Origin: an uncultured virus (IMG/VR IMGVR_UViG_3300042881_000982) | Lineage: Duplodnaviria > Heunggongvirae > Uroviricota > Caudoviricetes | Length of the DNA stretch: 64,000 nucleotides | IMG/VR virus record: IMGVR_UViG_3300042881_000982 | Reading direction: 5' to 3' (one strand) | Shown here: positions 19,492 to 46,240 of the stretch, piece by piece | How the letters are laid out: each line of letters begins with the position of its first letter | Position numbering within the stretch: the stretch's first letter is position 1 | Position numbers and translations under genes: made by a program | The notes under the pieces: generated by a model | Seen by the model: the letters and a program-made list of their open reading frames with translations, nothing else | Told to the model about the DNA's origin: nothing | Databases searched by the model: none

Positions 19492-19512
19492 AGCCTAAGC
19501 CGATAGGCGCAA

Positions 19513-19544
19513 GGGGGCTGGCCGAGAGGCTGGCCCCTTTTTTT
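19513..19544 (+). terminator. Rho-independent terminator
   Basis: GGGGCUGGCC-GAGA-GGCUGGCCCC followed by a U7 tract. Confidence 0.85.
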
Positions 19545-20155: not shown

Positions 20156-20181
20156 CTTACCCGAGTAAGCAAGGAGCAAAC
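20156..20181 (+). promoter_or_regulatory. Palindromic site copy 3 fused to extended RBS AAGGAGCAAAC
   Basis: CTTACCCGAGTAAG-C-AAGGAGCAAAC-AAC-ATG. Confidence 0.8.
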
Positions 20182-21986: not shown

Positions 21987-22012
21987 CAAACACCATCATC
22001 GGGAGCAAAACG

Positions 22013-23200
22013 ATGACGATAACTGCCGAGCGCAAGCTCAAGAAAGCCAAAATCGACGTCATGCGTTCGACACTTCCGAGCCTTCGGTTGTGGTCGGGTA
22101 TCATGGCAATCGGCAAGACGAGCATCTGTGACACTACACCAACTGCATATACCAACGGACGCGACGAGGTCTATGGCCGCGACTTCGTGGAGATGTTGCC
22201 TGTGGCACAGCTTAGCTTCGTCTGTCTGCACGAGGCGATGCACAAGGGACTTCGACATCTGACCGTATGGCGCAAGTTGTTCGAGGAAGACGCCTCGCTC
22301 GCCAATCAGGCTTGTGACTACGTTGTTAACCGTATGATTGTGGCGGCTGACCCCGCCGAGAGCGTGGTTCAGTTCCCGCGCAACCCAGACGGTAGCAGGA
22401 TGGGCCTATATGATAAGAAGTATGACGGCATGTCGGCGCGACAAGTCTTCGACCTGTTGAAGAAAGACCCGCCATCCGATAGCCAAGGCTTCGACGAGCA
22501 TGGCTGGGGTGACGCGCAGGAGCTACCGAAGGAGGAGCAAGACGCGCTACAGAAGGAGATTGAACACGCCATGCGTCGAGGTGAGGCCGAGGCCAAGCGT
22601 TGCGGGGCTGGCAAGGGCGACATCCCTGCCGAGATAGGTGAGCTACTACGTCCGCAGATCAACTGGAAGGACGCGCTGCGCGAGTTCATCACACAGAATT
22701 GCACCGTCAAGGACGATACGACCTATCGACGCCTCAACCGTAGGTTCCATGCACTAGACTTAATCATGCCCACCACCTACGGTGAGAGCCTTGGACATAT
22801 CGTGGCAGGTCCAGACCTGTCCGGCTCGATGTGGATGGGTGACCCGTCCGACATGAAGAAAGTCCTGTCCGAGTTCGTTGGTGTCGTGAACCAAGTAAAC
22901 CCAGAGCACGTTGACCTGCTTTACTGGGACGGCGAGGTGACGGGCCACGAGGAATACAAGCGTGGCGACTACGAGGGTATCGCTAACGCTATGCGACCCA
23001 AGGGTGGCGGTGGCACTGACCCGCGCTGCGTCCAACGATACCTTAAAGAGAACAACATCAAACCTGACTGCATCATTATGTTCACGGACGGGCACGTCTT
23101 TGACCAATGGGGCGACAACTGGCCAGCACCCATCCTGTGGGTGATATGTGGCAACCCAAGCGTAACAAGTAAGACGGGCAAGACCGTCCACGTTCAATAA
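22013..23200 (+). CDS. DUF2201-like putative metallopeptidase + VWA-domain protein
   Basis: TAYTNG, LHEAMH (HExxH), NQACDYVVN; MIDAS-like DLSGSM, GGGGTD, FTDG. Confidence 0.8.
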   Translation: MTITAERKLKKAKIDVMRSTLPSLRLWSGIMAIGKTSICDTTPTAYTNGRDEVYGRDFVEMLPVAQLSFVCLHEAMHKGLRHLTVWRKLFEEDASLANQACDYVVNRMIVAADPAESVVQFPRNPDGSRMGLYDKKYDGMSARQVFDLLKKDPPSDSQGFDEHGWGDAQELPKEEQDALQKEIEHAMRRGEAEAKRCGAGKGDIPAEIGELLRPQINWKDALREFITQNCTVKDDTTYRRLNRRFHALDLIMPTTYGESLGHIVAGPDLSGSMWMGDPSDMKKVLSEFVGVVNQVNPEHVDLLYWDGEVTGHEEYKRGDYEGIANAMRPKGGGGTDPRCVQRYLKENNIKPDCIIMFTDGHVFDQWGDNWPAPILWVICGNPSVTSKTGKTVHVQ

Positions 23201-23216
23201 CAAAGGAGCAAATACC

Positions 23217-24293
23217 ATGAGCAACATCGACTTTACCAATCGCGTTTCACTGCAAGAAGCAGCCGAGCTTATCGCTGCCATCGGCACAACCAACACCATC
23301 CTACTCAAGGGCGAGAAGGGCATCGGCAAGTCTTCGATCATGAAGCTACTGCCCGACCTGCTTGGCTCCGGCTATGAGTATGCCTACTTCGACATGGGCA
23401 ACAAGTCCGAGGGCGACACTGCCATCCCGTTCCCCGACAAGGAGCGCAAGGTTATGGAGTTCTTCATCAACACGGCGCTCAAGCTGCACACGGGTAAGCC
23501 TGTTGTCATTATGCTTGACGAGTTCGGCAAAGCGCCGCGCTCCATCCAGAACATGATGCACACCTTGCTTGAGGTGAACAACAAGCGCATCCAAGACACC
23601 ATGCTGCCAGAGGGTAGTATCGTATTCCTAACCACCAACCTGTCTGAAGAAGGGCTTGGCGATACGCTGCTTGACCATAGCATCGACCGTCTGACTGTGG
23701 TCGAGGTCCGCAAGGCCAACGCCAGCGAGTGGCTGCCGTGGGCTGCCGAGAACAACATCCACCCTGCGCTCATGGCGTGGGTTAACCAAACACCTACAGT
23801 GTTATCCTCATTCAGAGACGACGACTTCGACACCGACAACCCCTACGTCTACAACCCTAAGCGAGTGCAGGGTAAGTTCATCACGCCGCGCTCCCTTGAG
23901 CTTGGCTCCAACGTCATGTGGGGCCGTGACCGGATCAGCACTAACGCGCTTACCTGTGCGCTAGTAGGCACAGTAGGGAGCGCAGGGGCTAACGACATTG
24001 CATCCTTCCTTGCGTATCAGGATGAGATACCTACCCGCGAGAGCATCATCGCTACGCCCGAGTCGGCTACGATACCTACGTCTACTGGCGCAGTCGTAAC
24101 ACTGTTGTTCAACCTTGAACGTGCGGTGGACGGTGAGACCATCGCACCCATCATGAAATATGTCCGTCGCCTCGAAGAAGAATACCAAGCCGTGTTCTGC
24201 ACGTCGCTGGCACGGTCCAAGTCCAAGCAGAAGATAGCGTTCACCAACAAAGCGTTCACTGACTGGGCGCGTGACAACCAAGACATCCTCTAA
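23217..24293 (+). CDS. MoxR-like AAA+ ATPase
   Basis: GEKGIGKS (Walker A), IMLDE (Walker B), TTN, DR, TPRS. Confidence 0.8.
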   Translation: MSNIDFTNRVSLQEAAELIAAIGTTNTILLKGEKGIGKSSIMKLLPDLLGSGYEYAYFDMGNKSEGDTAIPFPDKERKVMEFFINTALKLHTGKPVVIMLDEFGKAPRSIQNMMHTLLEVNNKRIQDTMLPEGSIVFLTTNLSEEGLGDTLLDHSIDRLTVVEVRKANASEWLPWAAENNIHPALMAWVNQTPTVLSSFRDDDFDTDNPYVYNPKRVQGKFITPRSLELGSNVMWGRDRISTNALTCALVGTVGSAGANDIASFLAYQDEIPTRESIIATPESATIPTSTGAVVTLLFNLERAVDGETIAPIMKYVRRLEEEYQAVFCTSLARSKSKQKIAFTNKAFTDWARDNQDIL

Positions 24294-24304
24294 GGAGCAA
24301 ACCA

Positions 24305-25156: not shown

Positions 25157-25328
25157 ACACCAGATATATGAGGTGGAGGCATGGGGTTACGGGGAGACAA
25201 AATACTTCTCCGTGTATTGGACGCATGGCGGCAACGGCTTGAAGTATGTGTTCCCCAACATCATAGCTCGTGACGAGCTAGAGGCATACACCATCGGACT
25301 ACAGAAATTAGCAGAAGGAGCAGACTAA
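25128..25328 (+). CDS. Hypothetical protein
   Basis: 66 aa ORF filling the gap; start uncertain. Confidence 0.45.
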   Translation: MPSSNNTSGEHQIYEVEAWGYGETKYFSVYWTHGGNGLKYVFPNIIARDELEAYTIGLQKLAEGAD

Positions 25329-26274: not shown

Positions 26275-26295
26275 CGCAAACAAGGAGCAAACAAC

Positions 26296-31175: not shown

Positions 31176-31938
31176 AATTAAAGTACCGACCAAGCGCCCA
31201 AGCATTATGATCGCCACACCTATGTACGGTGGTATGTGCACGGGAACTTATGTGCAGGGCTTGCTGATGACCATGCAGAAGATGCGTGAAGTGGGCGTCA
31301 ACGTGGCGTGGTGCCAGATTATGAACGAGAGCCTCATCACCCGTGCCCGTAACGAACTGGCCCGTGTGTTCCTTGCTAGTGACCATGACTACCTCATGTT
31401 CATCGACGCTGACATTGGCTTTAATGGTGAGGCAGTCGCACAGCTTATGCTGGCTGACAAGGACATCGCCTGTGGCATCTACCCCAAGAAGGAAGTGAAC
31501 TGGGACAGCGTCAACCGTGCGGCACTGGCTGGCGAGACGGACCTAGCAGAACATGCCGGAGCCTTTGTGTTCAACATGGTTGGGAGTGGAGACGCGCACA
31601 GTGACGAGAGCGGCTGCATCGAAGTCCGCCATGGCGGCACAGGCTTCATGCTCATCAAGCGGGGGGTGTTCGAGCATCTTATACCCCACGTTCCAACCTA
31701 TCGCGTATCGTCGTTCAAAGACCCAGAGACAGACGAGTACGCCAAGCCTTTGACCCATGAGTTTTTCGCTACGTCAATCGACGAGAGCGGGGCGCTGTTG
31801 TCAGAGGATTACCATTTTTGTGAACTGTGGCGCACCCACGGTGGCAAAATCCACGCCCACCCGTTTATCCGGCTGACCCACACAGGCACCTATGTGTTTG
31901 ATGGGGACATTCTGAAAAGCGGCGGCAATCTCAAGTAA
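31165..31938 (+). CDS. GT-A fold glycosyltransferase-like protein
   Basis: IATPMYGG, ESLITRARN, LMFIDADI, GTGFMLIKR, LSEDYHFC, LTHTG. Confidence 0.7.
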   Translation: MTDEIKVPTKRPSIMIATPMYGGMCTGTYVQGLLMTMQKMREVGVNVAWCQIMNESLITRARNELARVFLASDHDYLMFIDADIGFNGEAVAQLMLADKDIACGIYPKKEVNWDSVNRAALAGETDLAEHAGAFVFNMVGSGDAHSDESGCIEVRHGGTGFMLIKRGVFEHLIPHVPTYRVSSFKDPETDEYAKPLTHEFFATSIDESGALLSEDYHFCELWRTHGGKIHAHPFIRLTHTGTYVFDGDILKSGGNLK

Positions 31939-31950
31939 GGAGCAAACGAC

Positions 31951-33417: not shown

Positions 33418-33435
33418 ACACCTAGGAGCAAACTG

Positions 33436-34980
33436 GTGCAAATCATTGAGAACAAGGCGTTGCTGGTCAACGCAGCGGACTCGTCCGTCATCACGGACAA
33501 TATACATAAGAGCGCAGATACAGCCGAAGGTGTCCTTGTCAAATGGGGACACACCGAGAGCGAAATCCTAGCCAAGCTGGGCTTCGACGATACCCCATCG
33601 CCCATCCTTAAGAGCTACCAATGGACTGGTAAGCTCACCCCGTTCGAGCACCAGAAGACCACAGCCTCGTTCCTCTCCATCCGGCGCAGAGCGTTTTGCT
33701 TCAACGAGCAGGGCACAGGCAAGACGGCGTCCGTCATCTGGGCAGCCGACTATCTCATGAACCGTGGCGATGTGAAGCGCGTCCTCGTCCTATGCCCGTT
33801 GTCCATCATGAAGTCAGCGTGGCAGCAAGACCTGTTCAAGTTCGCCATGCACCGTTCGTGTAGCGTGGCGCATGGTGCCGCCAAGCAGCGGGAGAAGATT
33901 ATCGCAGCGGGTGCCGAGTTCGTCATCATCAACTTCGACGGCGTGGCTATCGTCAAGGACCAGATTATCAATGGTGGCTTCGACCTTATCGTGATCGACG
34001 AGGCTAACGCCTATAAAAACGCGCAGACCAACCGTTGGAAAATCCTCAAGCAAATCGTGAACGCGACAGAACCTCACATCTGGATGCTTACTGGTACGCC
34101 AGCAGCACAGTCACCGCTCGACGCTTATGGCCTCGCTAAGCTGGCTGGTGGACCTAACTGCCCCAAGTTCTACGGTCAGTATCGCGACCAAGTAATGATG
34201 AAGGTGACCCAGTTCAAATGGGTTCCCAAGCCCAAGGCGCAGGATATTGTGCATAGCATACTCCAGCCAGCCATCCGGTTCGAGAAGAAGGATTGCTTGG
34301 ACCTACCCGAGGTGACCCACACCGAGCGCGAAGCGCCGCTCTCCGCGCAGCAGATGAAGTATTACAAGCAGCTTAAGAGCCAGATGCTGATCGAAGCTGG
34401 GGGCGAAGAGGTCAGCGCGGTCAACGCCGCTACACGCATCAACAAGCTGCTCCAGATCAGCGGAGGCGCGGTCTACACGGACACTGGTGAGGTGTTGGAG
34501 TTCGACGTCAGCAACCGCATCAACACCGTGCTGGAAGTCATTGAGGAAGCCACCAGTAAGGTGCTGGTCTTCGTGCCGTTCACGCACACCATCGAGCTTC
34601 TACGCGCCAAGTTGGAGAAGCAGGGCATCTCCTGCGATGTCATCAACGGCAAGGTGCCAGTCAACAGGCGCAGCGACATCGTCACGCGGTTCCAAAACGA
34701 GAAGAACCCACACGTCCTCATCATCCAGCCACAGGCTGCATCGCACGGGCTTACTCTTACGGCAGCAGATACTATCATCTGGTATGCCCCGGTGACTTCT
34801 GTGGAGACCTACCTACAGGCAAACGCCCGTATCAACCGCCCCGGCCAGAAGAACGCCATGACCATCGTGCATATCACGGGTAGCGAAGTCGAAGCGCGCC
34901 TCTATTCCATGCTGCGTGGGAACATTGAGAATCACGAACGCATCATTGATTTATACCGTAGAGAACTTGACACTGTATAA
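33436..34980 (+). CDS. SNF2-family helicase
   Basis: QGTGKT, IDEA, LTGTP, HGLTL, QANARINRPGQ. Confidence 0.9.
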   Translation: MQIIENKALLVNAADSSVITDNIHKSADTAEGVLVKWGHTESEILAKLGFDDTPSPILKSYQWTGKLTPFEHQKTTASFLSIRRRAFCFNEQGTGKTASVIWAADYLMNRGDVKRVLVLCPLSIMKSAWQQDLFKFAMHRSCSVAHGAAKQREKIIAAGAEFVIINFDGVAIVKDQIINGGFDLIVIDEANAYKNAQTNRWKILKQIVNATEPHIWMLTGTPAAQSPLDAYGLAKLAGGPNCPKFYGQYRDQVMMKVTQFKWVPKPKAQDIVHSILQPAIRFEKKDCLDLPEVTHTEREAPLSAQQMKYYKQLKSQMLIEAGGEEVSAVNAATRINKLLQISGGAVYTDTGEVLEFDVSNRINTVLEVIEEATSKVLVFVPFTHTIELLRAKLEKQGISCDVINGKVPVNRRSDIVTRFQNEKNPHVLIIQPQAASHGLTLTAADTIIWYAPVTSVETYLQANARINRPGQKNAMTIVHITGSEVEARLYSMLRGNIENHERIIDLYRRELDTV

Positions 34981-35076: not shown

Positions 35077-35093
35077 CAAATGAAGGAGCAAAC

Positions 35094-35501: not shown

Positions 35502-35774
35502 ATGGATATTATAGAAACGGTTACGCGGGTAGCACACGAAGCTACCCAAAGGTGGTCTGATGAAGGTATGCCAGATTGTTGGCAGCGCCCATGGGAAGAG
35601 CTATCCGACGAGGAGAAGAACTTCCTCCTAACTTTGGCTAAGGACATCATCTCTCAACCCGACATGACACCTGTAAACGACGACGATAAGTCCCCTCGGC
35701 AGATATTCATCGAAGGTATTTTCTGGGGTACGGTACGTACCCAGTACGCAATAAAATCAGGAGAAAACAAGTGA
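35502..35774 (+). CDS. Hypothetical protein
   Basis: 90 aa, PWEELSDEEK. Confidence 0.55.
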   Translation: MDIIETVTRVAHEATQRWSDEGMPDCWQRPWEELSDEEKNFLLTLAKDIISQPDMTPVNDDDKSPRQIFIEGIFWGTVRTQYAIKSGENK

Positions 35775-36673
35775 GCAACATTACGATTTTTGAAGAAGCA
35801 TCCGACCTGCCCACGGTACGCCGTGAGACGCGCCGCGCAGACAAGATGGGTGGTGGCACTGGCCTCCGTCGCATCGCTACCACGAACGCCGCTACCTTTA
35901 AGCGTGTCGTTGGTGGGGAGCAGATCGGTAAAGCTGTGCCGCACCAACTGGATGTCATCATCGTTGACTGGATGAAGGACGTGTCGCGTGAGTTCTACGT
36001 TAAGGCGTATGACCCAGACGCAAAAGCCACGCTGCCTGATTGCTGGTCGGGGTTGGGTGATAAGCCCGACGCCAAGGCTACCACTCCGCAGTCTGACTCC
36101 TGCGCCGCTTGCCCCAAGAACGTCGATGGTTCGGGCCAGAACGGTAAGGGTAAGGCTTGCCGCTTCAAGCGCCGCGTAGCGGTCCTCGTTGCTGGTGACC
36201 CATCAGGTGAAGTCTACCAGATGAATTACGCAGCGACTTCGCTGTTCGGTAAGAGCGTTGGTAACAACCATCCGTTCGAAGCCTACCGGAAGTTCCTGTC
36301 AGCCAATGGTGAAAACCTCGACACCGTCGTTACTCGGGTAATGTACGACCTTGAGTCGGACACCTCGAAGCTAAAGTTCAAAGCCATCCGCCACCTCACC
36401 GAGTTGGAAGCTGGTCTGGTTGATGCCGCACAGGACGATTCAGAAACCCAGCGTTATATCCAGCTTACGGCTGCTGCGATGGATGGGGCCAAGGCTCCTG
36501 CTGTTGCTGCTATTGCCGCACCTGCTGCGACTGCTAATCCGTTCGGCGACGATGACGAAGAGGAAGAAGTAGCACCAGTCAAACGGGCCGCAAAGCCTAA
36601 GGCAACTGCCGAGGTGAAGCCAGAACTGGCGGAAGTCCTCAACGAATGGCTTGATGATGAAGAAGAGGCTTGA
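35771..36673 (+). CDS. Putative single-stranded DNA-binding protein
   Basis: PDCWS, CAACP, GKACRFKRRVAV, acidic C-terminal tail (WLDDEEEA); between helicase and primase. Confidence 0.55.
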   Translation: MSNITIFEEASDLPTVRRETRRADKMGGGTGLRRIATTNAATFKRVVGGEQIGKAVPHQLDVIIVDWMKDVSREFYVKAYDPDAKATLPDCWSGLGDKPDAKATTPQSDSCAACPKNVDGSGQNGKGKACRFKRRVAVLVAGDPSGEVYQMNYAATSLFGKSVGNNHPFEAYRKFLSANGENLDTVVTRVMYDLESDTSKLKFKAIRHLTELEAGLVDAAQDDSETQRYIQLTAAAMDGAKAPAVAAIAAPAATANPFGDDDEEEEVAPVKRAAKPKATAEVKPELAEVLNEWLDDEEEA

Positions 36674-36903: not shown

Positions 36904-36943
36904 GGTTTTTTAAAGAGCAAATAATAAGCGGGAGATTCCCGCG

Positions 36944-39799
36944 ATGGTGAGTGATGCAATGCAACAACCCGATCTTCTAGAACTTGTGCAGCCAGCCGAT
37001 GGCTGGTTCGCAATTACGAGCATAAAAGGAAGCGGGAAGAAGGCTGACGTCCGTCAGGAACTTGTAGCTACGCGAGAAGAAGTAGATGCTCTGGTTGAGC
37101 GCTATGTCAACGCTGGCTGGAATGTATTCTTTGGGGTCGCCAAGTACGCAACTGGCGACAACCGCACAAAGGAGAACGTGAAGGGGTTGAAAGCCTTTTG
37201 GCTCGATATTGATTGCGGCCCTACCAAGGCCGAGATCGACCCTAACACTAAACGACCTGATGGATATATTGACCAGAAGACGGCGCTCCAAGCGCTGCGT
37301 ACTTTCTGTAAGACAGTCGGTCTTTCTACCCCTACCCTCGTAAGCTCAGGCGGTGGCATCCATGCCTATTGGCCGCTTGAGGAAGAAATATCACGGCGTG
37401 ACTGGGAACCAGTGGCTGAACGCTTCAAGGCGGTCTGCCGCGCCCAGAACTTCTACGTCGATGACAAGGTGTTTGAAGTGGCGCGCATCCTGCGCATCCC
37501 CGGCACGTTTAACTTCAAGCAGGAAGAGCCACGTCCGGTTCAGTTTATCCATGTGGGTGAGACGACTACCATCGAGGCAATGCGCTCGGTCTTCGGTGTC
37601 AAGCCACAGGCGACAATCTTCGACGATAACTTCGAGATGTCGCCGCGCCAACAGGCGCTGATGAGCGGCGTGGATTATAACTTCAAGCGCATAATGGTCC
37701 GCACAGCCAAGGGTGATGGTTGCAACCAGCTTCTACACGCCTACAAGAACCAAGCCACTGTTGGCTATTACGAGTGGTTCTACGCGCTGTCCGTGGCTGC
37801 CATGTGCGGGGATGCTGATACAGCAGTGCACATGATGTCGAAGGGCCATCCGGACTACGACCCGGATACCATAGACAAGAAGGTAGCCACCATCCGGAAG
37901 GCGACAAGCTGCGCCAAGTTTAAGAGCGTCAACCCTGACCTATGTGTTGGGTGTCCGCATCTCGACAAAATCCTCGGCCCCAAGGAATTGGGTAAGGTCG
38001 TCAAGGAATCTGTTGAGGATTCGGTTGTAGTTGAGACGTCGCCCGGTGTGGTTGAAGAAATTGAAATCCCCAAGTACCCCTTCCCGTTCTATCGGGGCGA
38101 GAGCGGGGGCATCTGGCGTAAGCCACCCAAGGACGCGGAAGAGACTGACCCAATCATGGTCTACTCCAACGACTTCTATGTGGTGAAGCGGATGCACGAT
38201 CCGGGTGAGGGCGACTCCGCGTTGTTTCGCTTGCACCTACCACGCGACCCGTTGCGTGAATTTTCCATCCCGATGTTCAAGGTCACCCAGAAGGATGAGC
38301 TTCGCAAGGCGCTCTCCGCACGGGGTGTAGTTAGTTACGGCAAAAAGTTCGACATCCTCATGGACTACGTCATGAAGTCGGTCGAGAACCTCCAAGATAC
38401 ACAGAAAGCAGAAATCATGAGACAACAATTTGGCTGGGTAGACGGCAACAGCCGTTTCGTTTTAGGCGACCAAGAGATCACCGTTGAGGGCAACATCTAT
38501 TCCCCTCCCTCCAAGGCCACAAGCAAGCTGGCCAAGTTCGTCGGCCCAGTCGGGTCGCTGGAAAACTGGAAAGAAGTTTGGAGTCTTTACGGCGTAGAGG
38601 GTATGGAAGCACAGGCTTTCGCCGCGCTTAGCGCGTTCGGGTCTCCGCTGCTCAAGTTCCTCGACCAGACCGGAGCGGTTATCAACCTGTTCAACTCGCT
38701 CTCCGGTACCGGTAAGACCACCATCCTCAACATGGTCAACAGCGTCTATGGGCACCCCAAGGAACTGCGCCTCAAAGAAATCGACACCATGAACGGCAAG
38801 CTCCAGTGGGTTGGCGTTCTCAATAACTTGGCCCCCACGATGGACGAGCTTACCAACGTCACGTCGAAGGAATACTCGGACTTCCTATACTCGCTGTCCA
38901 ACGGCAAGGGGAAAGAGCGCATGTTGGCTGGGTCCAACGAACTGCGTGAGAACAACACCACGTGGCAGAGCATCACGGTCTCGACGTCAAACTCCTCGTT
39001 TGTCGAGAAGCTGTCGATATTGAAGGACAACCCAGAAGGCGAACTGATGCGCCTGATCGAGTATCCCATTGGGTTGGTAGAGACCGTCAGCACTGCGCAC
39101 GGTAAGAACCTATTCGACAAGGTGCTTTTCGCTAACTACGGCCATGCCGGACCTATTTACATCCGTTACGTGTTGGCGAACATGGAGTATGTGCTTGGTA
39201 AGTGCGCCCAGATGCAGGAGAAGATCGACCGTGAGCTTGGGTTGCTCCCCAAGGAGCGCTTCTGGTCGGCTACGCTTTCAGCCAACATCGTGGGTGGTAT
39301 GCTTGCCAAGCAGTGCGGGTTAATCGACTGGGATATGGACCGCATCTATATGTGGGCCTGTGGTCTGGTTGAGCGCATCCGCGTGGACACAGCGGCACCG
39401 TTGAACGGCGTGGAGCAAGTTATCAATGACTACCTCTATCGCCACGTGCAGAACATCCTCGTCGTTGATGACATGGCGGACCTGCGCACCAATATGCAAG
39501 CACTGCCGAAGCGCGAACCAAAGGGTGAGTTGCTAATCCGCATCGAGCCGGACACCAAGATGATGTTCTTTATCGCCAAGCCGTTCAAGGAATACTGCGT
39601 CAAATACCAGATCAACTACAACGACACGTTGGCCAAACTGGAGAAGCAGGGGCGGCTGGTGAAGCGTGACGGCAAGCGCCTATCCAAGGGTATGGCTGTC
39701 TCTGGCGGTAACGTACACTGTCTCTGGTTCAAGCTCGACGATGATTTTATCAAGGTGGATGAGTATACCAAGGAAGACAAATCGGAAGATGCAAATTGA
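36944..39799 (+). CDS. Primase-helicase (RepB-like primase + DUF927 / P-loop)
   Basis: FWLDIDCG, SSGGGIHAYW, RILRIPGT; QFGW, SGTGKTT, DELT, G.GKER; the true start may be ATG 36959. Confidence 0.85.
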   Translation: MVSDAMQQPDLLELVQPADGWFAITSIKGSGKKADVRQELVATREEVDALVERYVNAGWNVFFGVAKYATGDNRTKENVKGLKAFWLDIDCGPTKAEIDPNTKRPDGYIDQKTALQALRTFCKTVGLSTPTLVSSGGGIHAYWPLEEEISRRDWEPVAERFKAVCRAQNFYVDDKVFEVARILRIPGTFNFKQEEPRPVQFIHVGETTTIEAMRSVFGVKPQATIFDDNFEMSPRQQALMSGVDYNFKRIMVRTAKGDGCNQLLHAYKNQATVGYYEWFYALSVAAMCGDADTAVHMMSKGHPDYDPDTIDKKVATIRKATSCAKFKSVNPDLCVGCPHLDKILGPKELGKVVKESVEDSVVVETSPGVVEEIEIPKYPFPFYRGESGGIWRKPPKDAEETDPIMVYSNDFYVVKRMHDPGEGDSALFRLHLPRDPLREFSIPMFKVTQKDELRKALSARGVVSYGKKFDILMDYVMKSVENLQDTQKAEIMRQQFGWVDGNSRFVLGDQEITVEGNIYSPPSKATSKLAKFVGPVGSLENWKEVWSLYGVEGMEAQAFAALSAFGSPLLKFLDQTGAVINLFNSLSGTGKTTILNMVNSVYGHPKELRLKEIDTMNGKLQWVGVLNNLAPTMDELTNVTSKEYSDFLYSLSNGKGKERMLAGSNELRENNTTWQSITVSTSNSSFVEKLSILKDNPEGELMRLIEYPIGLVETVSTAHGKNLFDKVLFANYGHAGPIYIRYVLANMEYVLGKCAQMQEKIDRELGLLPKERFWSATLSANIVGGMLAKQCGLIDWDMDRIYMWACGLVERIRVDTAAPLNGVEQVINDYLYRHVQNILVVDDMADLRTNMQALPKREPKGELLIRIEPDTKMMFFIAKPFKEYCVKYQINYNDTLAKLEKQGRLVKRDGKRLSKGMAVSGGNVHCLWFKLDDDFIKVDEYTKEDKSEDAN

Positions 39800-39983
39800 G
39801 GGCGTAACCTACGAAATTAACTGGCGCGCATTCCGGAAGGGGGCTTCTATGTTCTTCCCCTGCCTCGACCAAACACGTGCTCGGACACAACTAATGGTGG
39901 TCCTCAAGCGACTACGCATCAAGGTGTTGGTCAAGCCCTCCATAGAAAATGGGATTAGGGGTTTACGCATCTGGCGAAAATAG
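39789..39983 (+). CDS. Small conserved basic protein
   Basis: MQIEGVTYEINWRAFRKGASMFFPCLD...GLRIWRK; overlaps the primase stop. Confidence 0.6.
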   Translation: MQIEGVTYEINWRAFRKGASMFFPCLDQTRARTQLMVVLKRLRIKVLVKPSIENGIRGLRIWRK

Positions 39984-39990
39984 GTATGAG
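39962..39990 (+). promoter_or_regulatory. sigma70-like promoter for the predicted sRNA
   Basis: TTTACG-N17-TATGAG, predicted TSS ~39997. Confidence 0.5.
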
Positions 39991-39996
39991 GGCTTC

Positions 39997-40071
39997 GGAA
40001 GTTTGCTCCTTCCAGTTGCTAAACGCATCACTCCCCGACCCCCGGTTGCTCACTCAGCCGGGGGTCTTTTT
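39997..40071 (+). ncRNA. Predicted trans-acting antisense sRNA targeting early-gene RBSs
   Basis: Hairpin GGAAG-UUUGCUC-CUUCC; GUUUGCUCCUU is the exact reverse complement of the AAGGAGCAAAC RBS; ends in a terminator. Confidence 0.6.
40037..40071 (+). terminator. Rho-independent terminator at the early/late convergence point
   Basis: GACCCCCGGUUG-CUCACU-CAGCCGGGGGUC-UUUUU. Confidence 0.85.
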
Positions 40072-43000
40072 ATTGTTTCTCGGTTTCGAGACGGCGCAGA
40101 TAGAGATCGCTTAGGTATGGGGTACTCTCATCCATTGGCAATCCACGAGTGCCATAACTTTCGACAGCGTTATTCACCGCGTTGTTTTGAACCTCGTAGA
40201 ACGAGTCTATCCCAATTACATGAGTCGGATAGGTCTGGTTGAACGTGACCCAATCCTTTACAATCTGCTGCTGCGCAGCATCTGTCTCTGGGGTACTGCC
40301 GTACTGGTAGCGGTCAAGCGCAGTCTTACGTAGTTTGTTCAGGAAGTCTTCACGGGCCTTCTTGACCTTGACGTCGATAGACTTGGCTTCGTAGTTTTGC
40401 TGCTGTTTCTGGCTGGCTTCGGTTGAAGCAAAACCAAGGGCTTGGAGGATAACTTTGTCGCTGCTCCAGAAGTCCTTGTCCATGCCGACCAATTCACGGG
40501 CATAATTTGTCTGGCCTTCGGTAGCGAAGCGGTTGGCCTTGGCGACGTTGCTGAACAGTTTTGGCGTTTTCTCCAAAGCACGGTTGGTGTAACCGTTTAT
40601 CAAGTCCTTACCGGCCTTCAGGTAATCCATGACCATGTTGCCAGCCGCCCCGGTCAGGGCGCTGAATGTGTACTCCACAACCTTGCCTTCTGGTGTCTCA
40701 GCCCGAGATTCCCTTGGCACAAAGAACAGGAAGTCGAGCGCCACTGAGTTGGATAGGTCGATATCAGTGATGGCCGAGATCGGTCCTTTCTCAACCGAAC
40801 GTGCCACAACTTCAGCGGTGTCATCATCAAGCCCGAAGAGATTGGCGACCGTGCCATCCGACCCAAAGAACTTGGGTATCCAGACGTTCCGGAACCACCA
40901 GTCAACATTATAGGTGGCCTTGATGTTGCCGTTCTCGTCGAGATAGCTGAGACCGCCTTCTTCCTCCTCGTCATCGCCAAACGCCCATAACAACATGCTA
41001 GCGATGGTGGTGGAGAGACCATACAACGGCACTCCGGTGAGACCTGCATAGAGGCCGATATTGAAAAGTGCGCCAGTCGCAGTCTGGATAGCAGCTTTCC
41101 GCTCTCCGGGTTCAAGCCCGCTAACCTTAATAGCCGTGTACATGTTCCGTGCCAGCAGCGACGTCATCATGTACGGGTAGCTCATGAACTGCCCCGCCAG
41201 ACGCCCTATCCCTGTGTTGAGGACACGTGGCTTGTTGTACGATGAGAAGTCGAAGGTAGCTGCTAGCGTAGTCTCCACAGCCGCTTCGATGGCGTTCTTC
41301 TTTGCTTCGGCGTGGGTCTGCCCCTTTTTCTTATTCTCCCGATACGCCAGTTCCAGCGCGGCCATGTAGGTAGCTTCGCGGTTCACGCGCTCCATCTGGT
41401 GCATGAGCGTACCCATGGCCTCGAAAGCGAAGGTTGTACCGCGCCAAGCAGCCGTGTGCACACGGCCTTTCATAAGTTCCTGAAGAGCGCTGCTCTGCTG
41501 GGGGTCAGCATTACCATAGCCGCCAATCTGGTTGGCAAAGGTATCCATCCAAAGGTTTAGGTCGCGGCCTTCGTTCCACCCTTCCGACAACACTTCGTAC
41601 AGTTCCGGATCGCTCTCTTCCTTGAGCGCCGAGATCGGGTTGTCGAGTAGGTTGGGCTGCTCCCAATCAAAGGTAAAACTGCCATCCTCGCGCTTGATTG
41701 CCTTCAACGGACTGGTGACGAAACCACCAAGGCTAGAGAAACCGTACTTGCTGAGAGCGGCAGTGGCCTTGGCCGACCCATATTTCTGGGCCAATATCGG
41801 GAGCGCCACAATGTGAAGCTGCGTAAGCTGAATAAGCGCAGTCTTAGGGTTAGCCAAATACTGGTAGAAGGCCATCTTATTACCAAGCTCGATAGCGCCC
41901 TCCCAATAAGGGTTGCCCCGCTCCGGTGGCATTAGGTCGCTCAACGTGCGGAGTTCGATCTCCTTGATGAAGACGTTCATCTTCTCACGGTCAGGCATAT
42001 CCTTGACCATATCCTTGGCCCGGGAAATCTCTGTTCGTAGCTTTTCCCCGAACTTAGCGCGCTTCACATCGTTAATGGATGCGCGTCGGAAGTTGGCAAA
42101 GTTTTTCAGGATGTCGGTGCTGTAACCAGCGCGCATCTTACGCGGAGCCATGTGCTTACGCATATCACCAGCCGACATGGTCTGAAGCCACAGATCAAAG
42201 ACTTGGCTTCTAAGTGCACCGAGGTCTTTCTGGTCACCCTCAAACAGGTCGAGGACTTCCTTCAGCGGACCACCCGCCATCTGTCCGAACTGGTTGCGGA
42301 GGTCTTCCACATTCCCAGTCTCGGTGACTTCCTCACCACGAGACTCCATTATCCGTACGAACTGGTTCCGTTGGGTTGAGGTCTCAAACAGTTTGAAAAT
42401 GCTATTAGCGCCCGTACCCACACGTGCGTAGTAGGAACCAAAGCGCATAGCTGGGAAGTAGATAACCTGCTCCCGTGCCGGTTTGAACTGCGCTTCGAGC
42501 TTCTCCAATGCCTCGTCGAGTGCCTCGTCTTTCTTGGTCTCCATGAGACGCGAACGCAGCGCATCATACTTGGCTTCCAAATCGCGCCGATGGCCATCCC
42601 GCAGGAGCTTAAAAATTTCACGGCCTTTACCGCCACCAAACTCCGGACGACCAAGATCACGCCAACCGATGACGCGCTCGTCACCGGGAACACCTACGTA
42701 GACGCTCTTGATATCTTCGAATCGGCGAGCGATTTTATCTTCGACCTTCTTTTTACCTTTGGCGTCACCAACCGTGACGTTCCCCAGTTCGGTCTGAAGC
42801 TCCTTGGTTTTCTTGTCGAGTTTGGCATACGCCTCAGGCGTAGCTGCCTTGGTCGGGTCCACCTGATATGCCACAGTGGCGAACTCAAGGTCCGATAGAG
42901 CCTGTGCGGCCTTCGGATACTTCTTCAGGAAGTCAGCGACCTGCTCCAACTCATCGGCAAGCTTTAAATATTCCTTGGTCTGGAACCGAGTGATATCCTG

Positions 43001-46000
43001 CTGAGTGATCCGGTCAGCCTCAGTAAGACCCGGAATGCGCCCCTTCAAAACACGGAAAATATCTTCGGTCGAGAGGGTAGGCAGGATCAGTTGCCACTTA
43101 CCAATATCAACGGTGTCAATGGCCCCACGCAGTAGCGCCCAGTTTTCCTTGTCACCACGTGCCAGTTTAACGAGGTCAATCCCATCGCTCAGAACGTCAG
43201 CCGTATCGTTAGTAGCCGCAATCCGCTTCTGGATACGGTTCATCTTAGTCCGGATAGCCTTGGCCTTTGCCAGTGCCGTGCGCTTCTGCGCTTCGGTTAG
43301 GACAACCGGCTTACCATTGGAAACGACCTTGGGTTTTCTAGGTGCGGGCGCACTCGGACCACCAGTGGCGGGCGGAGCCGTAGGCGGGATAGGCGGCGCA
43401 CCCGGAGGAGCCGCAGCAGGAGGAATCTCGGACGCAACCTCTGCGGGTGCTGGTGTAGCAGTAGTTTCCTGTACAGGTTCCTGTACAACTGGTGCAGCAG
43501 TTTGCGCTTCGGCGACACGTTCCTGCGCCCACTGCGCCCCAGCTACACGCGAGAGGGCTACATCGCCGCCCTCAGATGGCCCAAGGGGGATTTTTGCATT
43601 GTCGAGACCGTAGGTTTTAAGCGCGTCGGAGTAGGACATCGGTTCGCGGCCATTGCGGATGTCATCTACACCTTCAAGGAACGCGTCTTGGTCGAAGTCA
43701 CGGTCTTGTGCCTCGGAGATAGCAAAGCTTTCGAGGTTCGTTAGGATTTCCTGTGGAGTAGCCGCAGCCGCTGGCGTGATAGTAGAAGGTGCAGCAGTTG
43801 GGGCCGGACGCACCATGGTGCCGTCAGGTTGCTCTTGGAAGCCAAACCCGCTGTACCACTCGGTAAGCTCAGTCGGCGTCATCTCTTTACCTACTTCAGC
43901 CGCAAATGGCTCAGGGCTAAGCTGAAGCTCGGTGCCGTTGGTGTCTGCCACCTTGGTAAGCTGCTCCATGGCCTTACGGCCACCACCCGTCTCGACTGCG
44001 CGCAGGCTGTCCACCTTGAGGATATTATCCGCCAAGGGCGTAAGCTGGATGCCACCACCTTCGATCAACACCTCATTGGTGTTGTCTGGGTTAACCGTGC
44101 CAAGGCCAGCCATGTCATTTACGGTGCGCACTGCGGGCGGAGCCGGAGGAGTGGGTGTAGGCTCAACCGTAGGCGCAGCCATCTCAGGCAGCGGCGGGAG
44201 CGCAGCCGTCTCGGGCGGGGCCGCTATATCAGGCGCAGCCGCCACAGGTGGAGGCGTAACAGGCGCAGCAGGTGTAGCCATCTCGGGCGGGGCCGGAGGC
44301 GTAACGGGCGCAGCAGGTGTAGGCGCAGCCGCCACAGGCGGAGGCGCAGCTTGAACGGGTGGTGGGGGCGGAGGTGTAGGTGTGATACCCACTTCACGCG
44401 CACTGGCTTGGGCTAATGTCGGGATAGGACCAGCAGTAGGGGTAGGCGCGGCAGCGGCTTCAATGGCAGCCTTAACAGGAGCCACAGCCACTTCGTCAAT
44501 GGAAGGCGCAGCCGGAACAGCGGGCGCGGCCATAGGTTCAAACGCGGGCACGGGCGTAACCGGTGCGGGACGCTCTATACCTGCTACGTTATACACAATA
44601 TCGACAGGATCAAACTGTTTGCCACGACTGGCCGCAGTCGCCATCTGGCGGGCGGCTTGGGTGTACTTGCCCTTTGGAAGCGCTTGAAGTTCAGGTGTGT
44701 CAATCACGATATCCGACACAAGCTGCTGTGCAGCCGAAGTGCGCTCTGACAATGTGGGGGCTTCCATGACCGGCGTGATGTCAAACGTAGGCGTAGGCGT
44801 GGGCGTGGTTATTTCAGGCGCAGGTGCAGCCGTTAGTGGACTGACTCCCGCTCCCTCGCCAACATCAGGAACTGATACGCCAGAAACAGGCCGCTCCAGT
44901 CCTCCTCCGACAATTTCTCCAGCGTCTGTAACACTGGGTGAGGGCGGCGCGGTTCCGATATCAGGAGCAACGCCTGCTCCAACTCCTCCGACGACATCCA
45001 TTCCGGTATCAACATCGGATACGACATCGGCCTCTCCTTCTACGCCAAGCATAGTGTTAATGATTGCTGTGTCGTACAGCTTACCCGCGTCCTTAACGGC
45101 TTGGTTGAAGGCTTGGCGTTGAGTTAGGTCAGGGTTCTGGTCACGCAGTGCCTGCGTCTCAACGGTAATTAAGCGGTAAAATTCCTGCTCAACATCCGGA
45201 GAATCTGCAAATGATGTCTTGTTGGTAGCCTCGGCTTTGCCCCGATTAAGCGCGGCACTAACGGCTTCTACGCCTCCACGGAGACTACCACCCATACCCC
45301 CACCAACAAGCGCGCCAAACGCCGCCTGCTCAAACATTTCTCCAGCGTCGATGTCGTTACCAGTTACAAGGCGTGGGTTAGCGTATTCAATGGCTGACTG
45401 GATGGCTTCAGTGCCACCTTCAAGCATCGTCGCCTTACCAATCCGTCCGAGGACAGTCTTGGCTGGGGTAGCGAAAATACCGGCCAGACCTAATTGATCC
45501 AACGCGGTTACCGCGAGCGCTCCGGGAGCAACTTTAACTAAATCTGAAAACTCTACGTCTTGCCGACCTTCTAGCTCTGTTGCTTCCCGAGCTTGACCAC
45601 CAAAAATATTTGATATCCCTAAACCGGGTAGTGGGACAGCGGCAGCGAGAGTACCGGGTATAGCACCTGCTATACCTTCAACCACATAGGGTATGGCGTT
45701 GCGTAAGAAGTCTCTCTTTACGTCTTCCTGAGTGGTTTCACCCTTTATCTCTATACCTTTATCGGCTGCAAAACGTCGAGCTTCTTCCGTGAATTGTTTT
45801 TTGAGTTCAGGGTCGGATTCGATAGCACGCTGGGTATCTTTTATATTTGCTGTCGTAGACAGAAGCCCCCGGGAGAAGAAATCCCCAAGGCGGTCGAAGA
45901 AACCAGTTTGAGTTTTGATATCCTCCAGTGCACCGCGTTGCCCAAGCTCTTGCAAATACGCAGCGCGCTCACGGTCGCGTTTGATCGCACCTTGGCGGTC

Positions 46001-46240
46001 GGTAAAATAATCCAAGAAGCCAAATACACCCGGAGCTTCTACAGCTTTTAACGGTTGACGAGCTTGTAACCGCGCTTCGGCAGTATTTACATCAGGCGCA
46101 GCCGCCACGGGGGCTGGCGCAGGGGCAGGCGCTTTGCTCGCGGCAATTTGTTCCTTAACCACACGCTGAATAACTTCCATTGGCGTGTCATCAGGAAACT
46201 CAAGGACGCGGCCATCGGCAAGTTCGGCGCGTTTTGTCAC
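40070..46240 (-). CDS. Large internal virion / ejection polyvalent protein (Pro-Ala linker, GNAT-like and PLxRFG-like regions)
   Basis: 2056 aa, last late gene; GGGRKAMEQLTKVAD...LTEWYSGFGF; YFPAMRFGSYY; long helical C-terminus. Confidence 0.7.
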   Translation of the reverse strand: MTKRAELADGRVLEFPDDTPMEVIQRVVKEQIAASKAPAPAPAPVAAAPDVNTAEARLQARQPLKAVEAPGVFGFLDYFTDRQGAIKRDRERAAYLQELGQRGALEDIKTQTGFFDRLGDFFSRGLLSTTANIKDTQRAIESDPELKKQFTEEARRFAADKGIEIKGETTQEDVKRDFLRNAIPYVVEGIAGAIPGTLAAAVPLPGLGISNIFGGQAREATELEGRQDVEFSDLVKVAPGALAVTALDQLGLAGIFATPAKTVLGRIGKATMLEGGTEAIQSAIEYANPRLVTGNDIDAGEMFEQAAFGALVGGGMGGSLRGGVEAVSAALNRGKAEATNKTSFADSPDVEQEFYRLITVETQALRDQNPDLTQRQAFNQAVKDAGKLYDTAIINTMLGVEGEADVVSDVDTGMDVVGGVGAGVAPDIGTAPPSPSVTDAGEIVGGGLERPVSGVSVPDVGEGAGVSPLTAAPAPEITTPTPTPTFDITPVMEAPTLSERTSAAQQLVSDIVIDTPELQALPKGKYTQAARQMATAASRGKQFDPVDIVYNVAGIERPAPVTPVPAFEPMAAPAVPAAPSIDEVAVAPVKAAIEAAAAPTPTAGPIPTLAQASAREVGITPTPPPPPPVQAAPPPVAAAPTPAAPVTPPAPPEMATPAAPVTPPPVAAAPDIAAPPETAALPPLPEMAAPTVEPTPTPPAPPAVRTVNDMAGLGTVNPDNTNEVLIEGGGIQLTPLADNILKVDSLRAVETGGGRKAMEQLTKVADTNGTELQLSPEPFAAEVGKEMTPTELTEWYSGFGFQEQPDGTMVRPAPTAAPSTITPAAAATPQEILTNLESFAISEAQDRDFDQDAFLEGVDDIRNGREPMSYSDALKTYGLDNAKIPLGPSEGGDVALSRVAGAQWAQERVAEAQTAAPVVQEPVQETTATPAPAEVASEIPPAAAPPGAPPIPPTAPPATGGPSAPAPRKPKVVSNGKPVVLTEAQKRTALAKAKAIRTKMNRIQKRIAATNDTADVLSDGIDLVKLARGDKENWALLRGAIDTVDIGKWQLILPTLSTEDIFRVLKGRIPGLTEADRITQQDITRFQTKEYLKLADELEQVADFLKKYPKAAQALSDLEFATVAYQVDPTKAATPEAYAKLDKKTKELQTELGNVTVGDAKGKKKVEDKIARRFEDIKSVYVGVPGDERVIGWRDLGRPEFGGGKGREIFKLLRDGHRRDLEAKYDALRSRLMETKKDEALDEALEKLEAQFKPAREQVIYFPAMRFGSYYARVGTGANSIFKLFETSTQRNQFVRIMESRGEEVTETGNVEDLRNQFGQMAGGPLKEVLDLFEGDQKDLGALRSQVFDLWLQTMSAGDMRKHMAPRKMRAGYSTDILKNFANFRRASINDVKRAKFGEKLRTEISRAKDMVKDMPDREKMNVFIKEIELRTLSDLMPPERGNPYWEGAIELGNKMAFYQYLANPKTALIQLTQLHIVALPILAQKYGSAKATAALSKYGFSSLGGFVTSPLKAIKREDGSFTFDWEQPNLLDNPISALKEESDPELYEVLSEGWNEGRDLNLWMDTFANQIGGYGNADPQQSSALQELMKGRVHTAAWRGTTFAFEAMGTLMHQMERVNREATYMAALELAYRENKKKGQTHAEAKKNAIEAAVETTLAATFDFSSYNKPRVLNTGIGRLAGQFMSYPYMMTSLLARNMYTAIKVSGLEPGERKAAIQTATGALFNIGLYAGLTGVPLYGLSTTIASMLLWAFGDDEEEEGGLSYLDENGNIKATYNVDWWFRNVWIPKFFGSDGTVANLFGLDDDTAEVVARSVEKGPISAITDIDLSNSVALDFLFFVPRESRAETPEGKVVEYTFSALTGAAGNMVMDYLKAGKDLINGYTNRALEKTPKLFSNVAKANRFATEGQTNYARELVGMDKDFWSSDKVILQALGFASTEASQKQQQNYEAKSIDVKVKKAREDFLNKLRKTALDRYQYGSTPETDAAQQQIVKDWVTFNQTYPTHVIGIDSFYEVQNNAVNNAVESYGTRGLPMDESTPYLSDLYLRRLETEKQ

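Follow-up and report, generated by a model that had tools for sequence, protein, structure and literature searches.

The window analyzed here is a 64,000-nucleotide (nt) stretch of DNA from an uncultured virus of the Caudoviricetes (IMG/VR record IMGVR_UViG_3300042881_000982). An 86-nt gap (positions 39984-40069) that separates its convergent replication (plus-strand) and late (minus-strand) operons holds an RNA element, which is probably a base-pairing small RNA (sRNA) of a new phage-encoded family and would occlude the ribosome-binding sites (RBSs) of replication genes carrying a common sequence, here called the barcode. The structural genes (terminase, portal, and capsid) lie on the minus strand from 2 to 19.5 kb. 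The replication module, which includes a family A polymerase, an SNF2 helicase, a PD-(D/E)XK nuclease, and a DUF927 primase, runs on the plus strand from ~19.8 kb to 39983, and large tail and virion genes follow on the minus strand from 40070 onward.

A structured RNA element lies between the replication and late operons

The predicted sRNA (39997..40074, plus strand; ~75 to 78 nt, with putative ends) consists of a 5' hairpin, a 23-nt linker, and an intrinsic terminator. The hairpin (39997-40013, plus strand) has a 5-base-pair (bp) stem and a 7-nt loop, GGAAG-UUUGCUC-CUUCC, and the seed GUUUGCUCCUU(C) at 40001-40012 is the exact antisense of the barcode, AAGGAGCAAAC. The terminator (40037..40071, plus strand) is formed by a stem of 12 pairs, 9 of them GC (40037-40066), with GUUGCUCACU in its loop (40045-40054), and is followed by a U run (TTTTTATT). 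Upstream of the hairpin lies a candidate sigma-70-like promoter. Thus, the promoter-like hexamers, the hairpin, and the terminator that the initial annotation described at this junction are all in the sequence. A 92-nt junction stretch folds at -34.7 kcal/mol (z = -3.3), and none of 200 shuffles folded as well. A plain terminator would account only for 40037-40071 and leaves the hairpin upstream of it, which is invariant among aligned relatives, without an explanation. A Rho-independent terminator, as expected of an sRNA, is also kept in relatives, where its sequence varies. The earlier proposal that the junction holds more than a terminator is supported, and the comparison with relatives points to a conserved structured RNA gene.

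The element does not resemble known RNA families. No match was found at the Rfam gathering score in the whole window, also to the phage antisense RNAs among the Rfam families, and a scan of 39900-40120 at E values up to 10 returned only sub-threshold, terminator-driven matches (the best, NsiR1, at 23 bits against a 39-bit threshold). Among 50,697 GenBank phage records, blastn with positions 39000-41500 gave no match, and a 126-nt segment spanning the element gave only chance matches (E of at least 0.1). We also considered whether the minus strand of the hairpin is a real RBS. This candidate was rejected on inspection by eye of the reverse complement of 39962-40012: no start codon stands where one would be expected, and one relative (L017) has lost the small frame.

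The seed is complementary to an extended Shine-Dalgarno sequence on a subset of replication genes

Counted with at most one mismatch, AAGGAGCAAAC is present 9 times in the window against 1.18 expected; none of 100 shuffles gave as many as 9. Eight of these matches are on the plus strand, and the sole minus-strand match is the hairpin itself (40001-40011). Exact plus-strand copies start at 20171, 24292, 26282, 31937, and 35083, and one-mismatch copies start at 23203, 25315, and 33423; GGAGCAAA is additionally found at 22002. The motif is thus present at all of the RBSs where it had first been reported, with four of the reported positions (35082, 25314, 33424, and 22001) off by one.

All of these sites belong to RBSs of plus-strand genes. 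The barcode precedes a 115-amino-acid (aa) open reading frame (ORF) (20171..20181; start 20185), a 283-aa gene (24292..24302; start 24305), a 106-aa resolvase-like gene (26282..26292; start 26296), and a DUF6378 gene (31937..31947; start 31951). Variants of it precede an AAA ATPase gene (AAGGAGCAAAT, 23203..23213; start 23217), a 291-aa gene (AAGGAGCAGAC, 25315..25325; start 25328), and the SNF2 helicase gene (TAGGAGCAAAC, 33423..33433; GTG at 33436), and GGAGCAAA (22002..22009), in a predicted hairpin loop, precedes a DUF2201/VWA-like gene (start 22013). The best conserved target is a 134-aa Gam-like gene, whose protein has a Pfam match just below the cutoff; here a 12-nt complement of the seed, GAAGGAGCAAAC (35082..35093), lies directly 5' of the ATG. 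The DUF2201 metallopeptidase/VWA-like gene and a MoxR-type AAA ATPase gene, both with the barcode, adjoin each other at 22013-24293.

This pattern is specific to strand and gene. Among the listed genes, 9 of 29 on the plus strand and 0 of 44 on the minus strand have GGAGCA[AG]A immediately ahead of their start, which agrees with the initial claim that the complementary RBS extension is restricted to the replication strand; a second minus-strand GGAGCAAA, at 54532, is within an ORF and away from any start. The same annotation spoke of a "global" switch, and this wording goes too far because only ~9 of the 29 listed plus-strand genes are barcoded. The barcode is missing at the RBSs of PolA, the nuclease, the methyltransferase, and the primase and so marks a subset of the early genes. 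Duplexes between the RNA and initiation regions are predicted to be more stable on the plus strand (median, -17.7 kcal/mol) than on the minus strand (-13.3 kcal/mol; Mann-Whitney p = 3e-4). Local folds leave most of the target RBSs unpaired, and place two of them in hairpin loops.

The element is conserved in a large phage family with compensatory changes in its stem

A primase-anchored search found 16 loci, of which five stop short of the junction, one is the window's own fragment (L002), and one (L011) is the same as another (L009) in this region. The resulting junction alignment holds the window and nine other sequences, with primase identities of 74 to 97%. The 17-nt hairpin is invariant in all 10, while the intergenic flanks vary. 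The exact 17-mer is present in at least 120 viral contigs; 80 loci with flanks reduced to 70 distinct contexts, 61 of which have a common layout, namely, a small ORF ending in ...RGLR(I/V)WR, a stop codon, a TA-rich box, 6 to 7 nt, the hairpin, a variable linker, and a variable terminator. The other nine contexts (L026, L028, L043, L047, L088, L091, L097, L102, and L104) place the 17-mer in an unrelated, conserved, coding-looking sequence with no small ORF or terminator nearby.

To avoid selection on the hairpin, a second scan was anchored on the coding motif of the small ORF. It recovered at least 118 stretches, 107 of them distinct, of which 42 carry the exact hairpin and 65 do not; by reading, ~13 of the 65 were judged to be chance matches. 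The variants have other stems (GAGAG/CUCUC, GCAAG/CUUGC, GGUAG/CUACC, GACAG/CUGUC, and GGAAAG/CUUUCC) and other loops, in which one to four U residues, or AU, CU, AC, or AAUC, stand ahead of an invariant GCUC. Because a MAFFT alignment misplaced the 5' arm in loop-length variants, stems were counted by script. All five stem positions are paired in 76 of 79 distinct coding-anchored relatives that have a GCUCCU core where it is expected, with Watson-Crick pairs only and no G-U. In this set, stem pair 2 is G-C in 65, A-U in 9, and C-G in 2, and pair 3 is A-U in 66, G-C in 8, U-A in 1, and C-G in 1; both variable stem positions thus change in a compensatory fashion.

The element belongs to a large family of uncultured aquatic phages. 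The isolates nearest to the window by terminase (48 to 56% aa identity) are the Pelagibacter phages HTVC027P and HTVC023P, phage DSL-LC04, and Synechococcus and Planktothrix phages, all aquatic. The primase is closest to those of Pseudomonas phage Rollin (29%) and Rhizobium phages (~23%); at the junction of Rollin, the small ORF and an intergenic element are both absent. A gapped-pattern search of genome_contigs returned 35 matches, of which 34 are unrelated and lack the hairpin, about the number expected by chance; the conserved coding context of most of these is, we presume, ribosomal protein S19. The one real match is an 8-kb contig in a metagenome-assembled genome binned as Actinomycetota, which is not reliable evidence for a host.

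Seed and barcode have changed together in relatives

Where relatives have a UGCUCCU core, their replication-strand RBSs most often read GGAG and then CAA, and whole-record counts of GGAGCAAA are many on one strand and one or few on the other. A sister clade, group B (G042, 73.6 kb; G043, 61.7 kb; and L307 to L310), keeps the small ORF, the promoter spacing, and the terminator but has a different RNA, in which a long 5' hairpin is followed by single-stranded GGUUACCUCUA..GGGUUGACUCCC. The group B seed, GGUUACCUCUA, is paired with a replaced barcode, TAGAGGTAAC, on orthologous genes: the replication genes of this clade use (T)AGAGGTAAC, the antisense of GGUUACCUCUA..GGGUUGACUCCC, and GGAGCAA is near-absent from them (2 of 20 and 0 of 25 Shine-Dalgarno [SD] sites). 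As with the group A motif, sense copies of AGAGGTAA are many and antisense copies few: its counts (replication strand/other strand) in group B genomes are 5/1, 10/1, 5/1, and 7/2. Each of these genomes has one other-strand copy at the junction element, and the second such copy in G042 is elsewhere.

In a computational swap test, the elements of the two clades were exchanged in five complete or near-complete genomes (three from group A, to which the window's type of element belongs, and two from group B), and RBS windows with at least 9 nt of complementarity were counted. In group A, a genome's own element matched 6 to 8 of 36 to 39 replication-strand windows and the other clade's element matched 0, with 0 to 1 of 36 to 39 on the late strand. 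In group B, the own element matched 4 to 5 of 31 to 36 replication-strand windows and the other clade's again 0, with 0 of 42 to 67 on the late strand. Three orthologues (AAA ATPase, 283-aa protein, and Gam-like protein) carry their own clade's barcode in both clades, and four (PolA, nuclease, primase, and 300-aa protein) lack it in both, at aa identities of 45 to 67%. When 62 non-duplicate loci were pooled, 139 of 717 RBS windows contained a complement, 9 nt or longer, of part of nt 1 to 60 of their own element, against 0 for the reversed control, 2 for the sense control, 9 for the complement-only control, and 3.55 for shuffles (mean of 20).

Smaller changes are also matched. At the Gam-like gene, a pair of at least 9 nt occurs in 59 of 68 distinct RBS/seed combinations and one of at least 12 nt in 22. 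Here, an RBS with GCAAAAC meets a four-U loop (UUUUGC; L380 and L390), one with GCAACT meets a two-U loop (UUGC; L417), and one with GAAAGGAG meets the CUUUCC arm (L367, L379, and L401); likewise, GCAACC is found with GGUUGC (L421 and L423), GCTAAC with GUUAGC (L433, in which a second gene matches too), and GCAG with CUGC (G015). On a tree of Gam-like proteins (72-row FastTree, weakly resolved), variant seeds fall in separate clades, and the CUUUCC-arm and two-U-loop variants each appear twice. With all barcoded genes pooled, a G before AGGAGC is found at 18 of 48 sites with a CUCUC arm versus 6 of 76, and AGGAGCAACT at 6 of 23 sites with a two-U loop versus 3 of 76. Where the loop is AUGCUC, fewer sites have the 3' AAAC (4 of 31 versus 29 of 76) and more have a G at -2 (18 of 31 versus 14 of 76). 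In three lineages, unrelated leader sequences further 5' pair with the genome's own linker, which gives bipartite pairings of 9+9 nt (L361/G003), 11+11 nt (L389), and 10+9 nt (group B).

The initial annotation had named covariation of the hairpin and the RBS in relatives as its decisive test. The group B replacement and the matched changes in smaller lineages bear it out, and at a fine scale the covariation is incomplete; target complementarity of a conserved seed is thus kept through sequence change, with the same qualification.

Some relatives have divergent junction elements (L170/G040, L189/G041, L182/G053 [the same as L412], and L419). The G040 element matches CCAAGAAGGAG, which is located 5' of the SD of one gene. 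In G041, GGAGCGC stands at three to five RBSs and no matching seed was found, and G053 and L419 are without clear pairing.

The linker is complementary to the start of the primase gene

The linker carries a motif, GCAUCACUC (40025..40033, plus strand), that is complementary to GAGUGAUGC (36949..36957, plus strand), codons 2 to 5 of the primase gene (start 36944), where the presence of GAGTGATGC was confirmed. In the window the pairing covers 9 nt and a further 5. Relatives have it too, in other registers and over other lengths: 15 nt (L006 and L007), 10 nt (L016), and, after matched changes on both sides, 11 nt (G002). The earlier suggestion that the middle of the RNA pairs with the primase start has therefore held up, in a form that is kept and reshaped among relatives, and the primase start is supported as a likely target of the linker. 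Directly 5' of the primase ATG lies a hairpin, GCGGGAGAUUCCCGC (36928-36942), which has an SD-like GGGAG in its 5' arm and compensatory stem changes in relatives. This hairpin may control translation of the primase, beside the start region complementary to the sRNA.

A further pairing had been proposed between the terminator loop and the start of the 300-aa gene (start 35771). The 10-nt match between GUUGCUCACU and this region is real in the window (AGTGAGCAAC was confirmed at 35770-35779). However, it was dropped as a target: coding (MSNITIF) accounts for the persistence of the mRNA side in G002 and G003, whose loops are different, and the pairing fails in relatives with other loops.

A DNA-level constraint upstream of the hairpin points to a candidate promoter

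The candidate promoter (39962..39990, plus strand) consists of TTTACG (39962-39967) and TATGAG (39985-39990) separated by 17 nt, and the hairpin starts 6 nt past the -10 box. The distance from TTTACG to the first base of the hairpin is 28 to 30 nt in 65 of 75 sequences, which corresponds to a 16- to 18-nt spacer, a hexamer, and 6 to 7 nt. The -35-like box sits in the Gly-Leu-Arg codons of the 64-aa ORF that precedes the element, and it is constrained at the DNA level. Among 67 hairpin-anchored contexts, its Leu codon is TTA in 57, TTG in 9, and CTT in 1; of all Leu codons in the ORFs of the window, TTA is the least used (5.1%; TTA and TTG together make up 19%). The Gly codon is GGT in 58 of 67 contexts, versus 39% genome-wide, and there is no such constraint on the third base of the next codon, Arg, which falls just beyond the hexamer. 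This comparative signal is good, though indirect, support for a transcription start at the hairpin.

Unavoidably, the element is also the 3' end of the replication-operon transcript, and the same pairing could in principle be exerted without an independent gene, by an anti-SD 3' untranslated region (UTR) of the replication operon that, either after processing or while still attached, pairs with RBSs of the same operon or folds back onto them. We regard this explanation as rather unlikely. It fits the position of the element, which directly follows the last plus-strand ORF and precedes the operon terminator and therefore is in every full-length operon transcript, and it fits a -10 box that is poor and was not called by a scan. 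On the other hand, the frozen synonymous sites in TTTACG/TTGCGT, the freedom of the neighboring codon, and the fixed spacing of 28 to 30 nt are what a promoter predicts, and a single copy per operon transcript could not cover ~9 sites. Transcription from an own promoter and from the operon are compatible with each other and are not mutually exclusive.

A proposed trans-acting RNA would repress barcoded replication genes

Our favored explanation remains a base-pairing sRNA, which would work as follows. The RNA, ~75 nt long, probably has two sources, a host-type promoter of its own within the final codons of the 64-aa ORF and the 3' end of the replication-operon transcript, and would end at the intrinsic terminator. 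Its 5' hairpin would present UUUGCUC in the 7-nt loop, the start of which fits the U-turn motif of antisense RNAs; pairing would begin there and run into the 3' arm. This would yield a duplex of 9 to 13 bp with the extended SD barcode AAGGAGCAAAC on a fixed subset of replication-module mRNAs, and the linker would additionally pair with the primase start region. 30S subunits would be expected to be excluded because the duplex covers the SD, and translation to be repressed, with or without mRNA decay, because a duplex of 9 to 13 bp should outcompete the shorter pairing with the ribosome. The RNA would accumulate with time and with template copy number, so that replication genes would be turned down late in infection; since its promoter is on every replicated genome copy, it would therefore act as a dosage-dependent brake. 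The sequence comparisons show the anatomy of the element, its conservation with a covarying stem, the constraint on the -35 box at the DNA level, barcodes specific to strand and gene, and the co-evolution of barcode and seed; a discrete RNA species, an effect that is repression and not activation, and its timing and purpose (with shut-off, immunity, or a carrier state as candidates) are inferred.

More tentatively, the sRNA and its SD extensions might form a family-wide RNA "address code," that is, a private translational regulon in which seed and barcode diversify together like immunity specificities; we consider this possible but doubtful. If true, the RNA would silence only genomes with the same barcode; a phage infecting alone would have in it a self-timer, and one in a mixed infection a weapon or a means of exclusion, and the seed/barcode pairs would be naturally orthogonal translational switches.

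Could the barcode instead be an operator for a protein, with the junction copy as an extra site? The protein might be a RegA-like translational repressor or a DNA-binding protein that reads the 11-mer either way. T4 RegA, which represses ~30 mRNAs at their initiation regions (PMC3014915), provides a precedent, and the conserved 64-aa protein encoded next to the element is without an assigned function. We nevertheless find such an operator very improbable. An RNA-binding protein would not read the reverse complement, and the DNA-binding version fails on the fixed orientation and distance to starts, on the covarying stem, and on register shifts, in which a G at -2 appears when the loop loses a U and one-base length changes are matched on both sides. 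No match to PF01818, the RegA family, was found in five related genomes, where the tool's control genomes likewise gave none, or in the 35 window ORFs scanned against Pfam.

There is little to recommend the idea that the RNA mainly targets host mRNAs in a takeover, or incoming related phages, with its own barcoded genes secondary. An anti-SD seed could reach many host RBSs, and the clade-specific seed/barcode pairs do resemble the immunity specificities of P1/P7 c4 (PMC12197685). Yet the co-evolution with the genome's own RBSs, on conserved orthologues, shows that self-targets are under selection, and no integrase or repressor module was seen in the scanned window ORFs. For integrase, the scan covered 57 ORF translations of the window (35 against Pfam and 22 against PHROGs; the lists overlap). 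Equally slight is the chance that the junction is an ordinary operon end, with an RNA-stabilizing or pause hairpin by a clear terminator and RBS complementarity as a by-product of C/U-rich composition, as any CUCCU-containing sequence pairs with SDs: loop bases are invariant while flanks drift, matches of 11 to 13 nt reach past the SD, controls are near zero, and neither the group B swap nor the matched small changes would be expected from composition.

Several observations weigh against a base-pairing sRNA or limit the strength of the case. A consensus promoter scan left TTTACG/TATGAG uncalled because the last base of the -10 box is not the conserved T. In one metatranscriptome run, 14% of sampled sequence words were present; its contigs were of relatives only and had a low depth, so that ends and strand could not be read and the transcript remains predicted. 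Any C/U-rich sequence automatically obtains ~6 nt of SD complementarity, and the gene starts come from our own crude scripts. The Fisher tests and pooled counts are uncorrected for shared ancestry; the deep swap is one event, and the smaller ones are perhaps six to eight. A genome's own hairpin type gives the longest mean match in just four of nine types. Compensatory change at the 5' bases of the loop was considered and rejected, as RBSs do not mirror AUGCUC, CUGCUC, or AAUCGCUC (the AU, CU, and AAUC loops); the mirrored forms of the first two are rare (AGGAGCAT at 1 of 31 sites and AGGAGCAG at 2 of 11). In the T1 genomes L402 and G047, GCTAAC stands at the Gam-like gene while the seed is unchanged. 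L412 and L419 have no RBS match of at least 9 nt, and the divergent elements of G041 and G053 show no convincing pairing with their own RBSs.

Relation to known regulators

To our knowledge, most phage sRNAs described so far have either a single target in the phage or targets in the host. In P1 and P7 c4, loop sequences pair around the RBS of a phage mRNA and block translation, with a specificity that differs between related phages (PMC12197685). Like c4 (and P22 sar and lambda OOP), the element described here is a phage-encoded small RNA with a loop-presented antisense to an RBS. Unlike c4, which has one target, ant, in a temperate immunity circuit, it would address ~9 replication genes with a common barcode in a genome with no sign of lysogeny. 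T4 RegA is a single factor that competes with ribosomes at ~30 initiation regions of earlier-class genes, on top of transcriptional timing (PMC3014915). The resemblance lies in one phage factor acting on many initiation regions; however, RegA is a 122-aa protein that recognizes loose A/U-rich sites, whereas the specificity element here would be an RNA with Watson-Crick recognition.

Among bacterial sRNAs, AbcR1 has C/U-rich seeds and pairs with the SD regions of several mRNAs via two modules (PMC4152367). Such anti-SD sRNAs likewise direct C/U-rich loops or single strands against the SDs of several mRNAs, but they serve host regulons through a generic SD plus context, whereas here the phage's own genes carry a dedicated, co-evolving SD extension of 5 to 6 nt. 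C/U-rich pairing with SD regions is also used by the staphylococcal UCCC-motif sRNAs and the anti-SD 3' UTR of icaR. CopA/CopT and RNA I/RNA II begin with kissing by a 6- to 7-nt loop and act as a dosage-dependent brake on replication functions. Those plasmid copy-number RNAs are cis-encoded and fully complementary to one target, unlike the trans-encoded RNA with short seeds and many targets proposed here. The system thus differs from known ones by its combination of a trans-acting RNA, a multi-gene regulon in its own genome, and a co-evolving SD extension. No phage RNA with an own-genome, multi-gene regulon set by an extended SD was found in the literature covered, which did not extend to subscription journals, or in the accessible part of a 2025 review (PMC12197685).

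If the proposed regulation is true, the element would be an RNA counterpart of T4 RegA in hundreds of uncultured aquatic phage genomes and would explain the odd RBS common to a subset of replication genes. It would also provide a marker of co-regulated genes in uncultured phages that can be read from sequence, as well as natural orthogonal seed/RBS sets (clade A versus clade B) that are directly testable in reporters.

The 64-aa ORF and other features near the element

The 64-aa ORF (39789..39983, plus strand) overlaps the primase stop codon, ends in ...GIRGLRIWRK, and has the -35-like box in its last codons. It is the last plus-strand gene and represents a conserved family that is always directly upstream of the RNA, with at least 519 relatives in viral contigs and 10 residues that are invariant in 40 sequences. 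The protein has no Pfam, PHROG, or confident Protein Data Bank (PDB) match, and tblastn against the 50,697 GenBank phage records found none. Searches with its AlphaFold model reached a best E value of 0.09 in Foldseek and Z scores below 5 in VIA-align. The model itself has a predicted local distance difference test (pLDDT) score of 94 and a strand-helix-strand-strand order.

On the other side of the junction, the minus-strand ORF at 40070-46240 encodes 2,056 aa and has PHROG matches to DarB-like antirestriction proteins (1e-36), along with a weak match to an N4-type virion RNA polymerase (7e-5, residues 261 to 345). At the opposite end of the replication module, a strong terminator-like hairpin (19511-19540; 13 pairs followed by a T run) lies between the divergent late and replication blocks.

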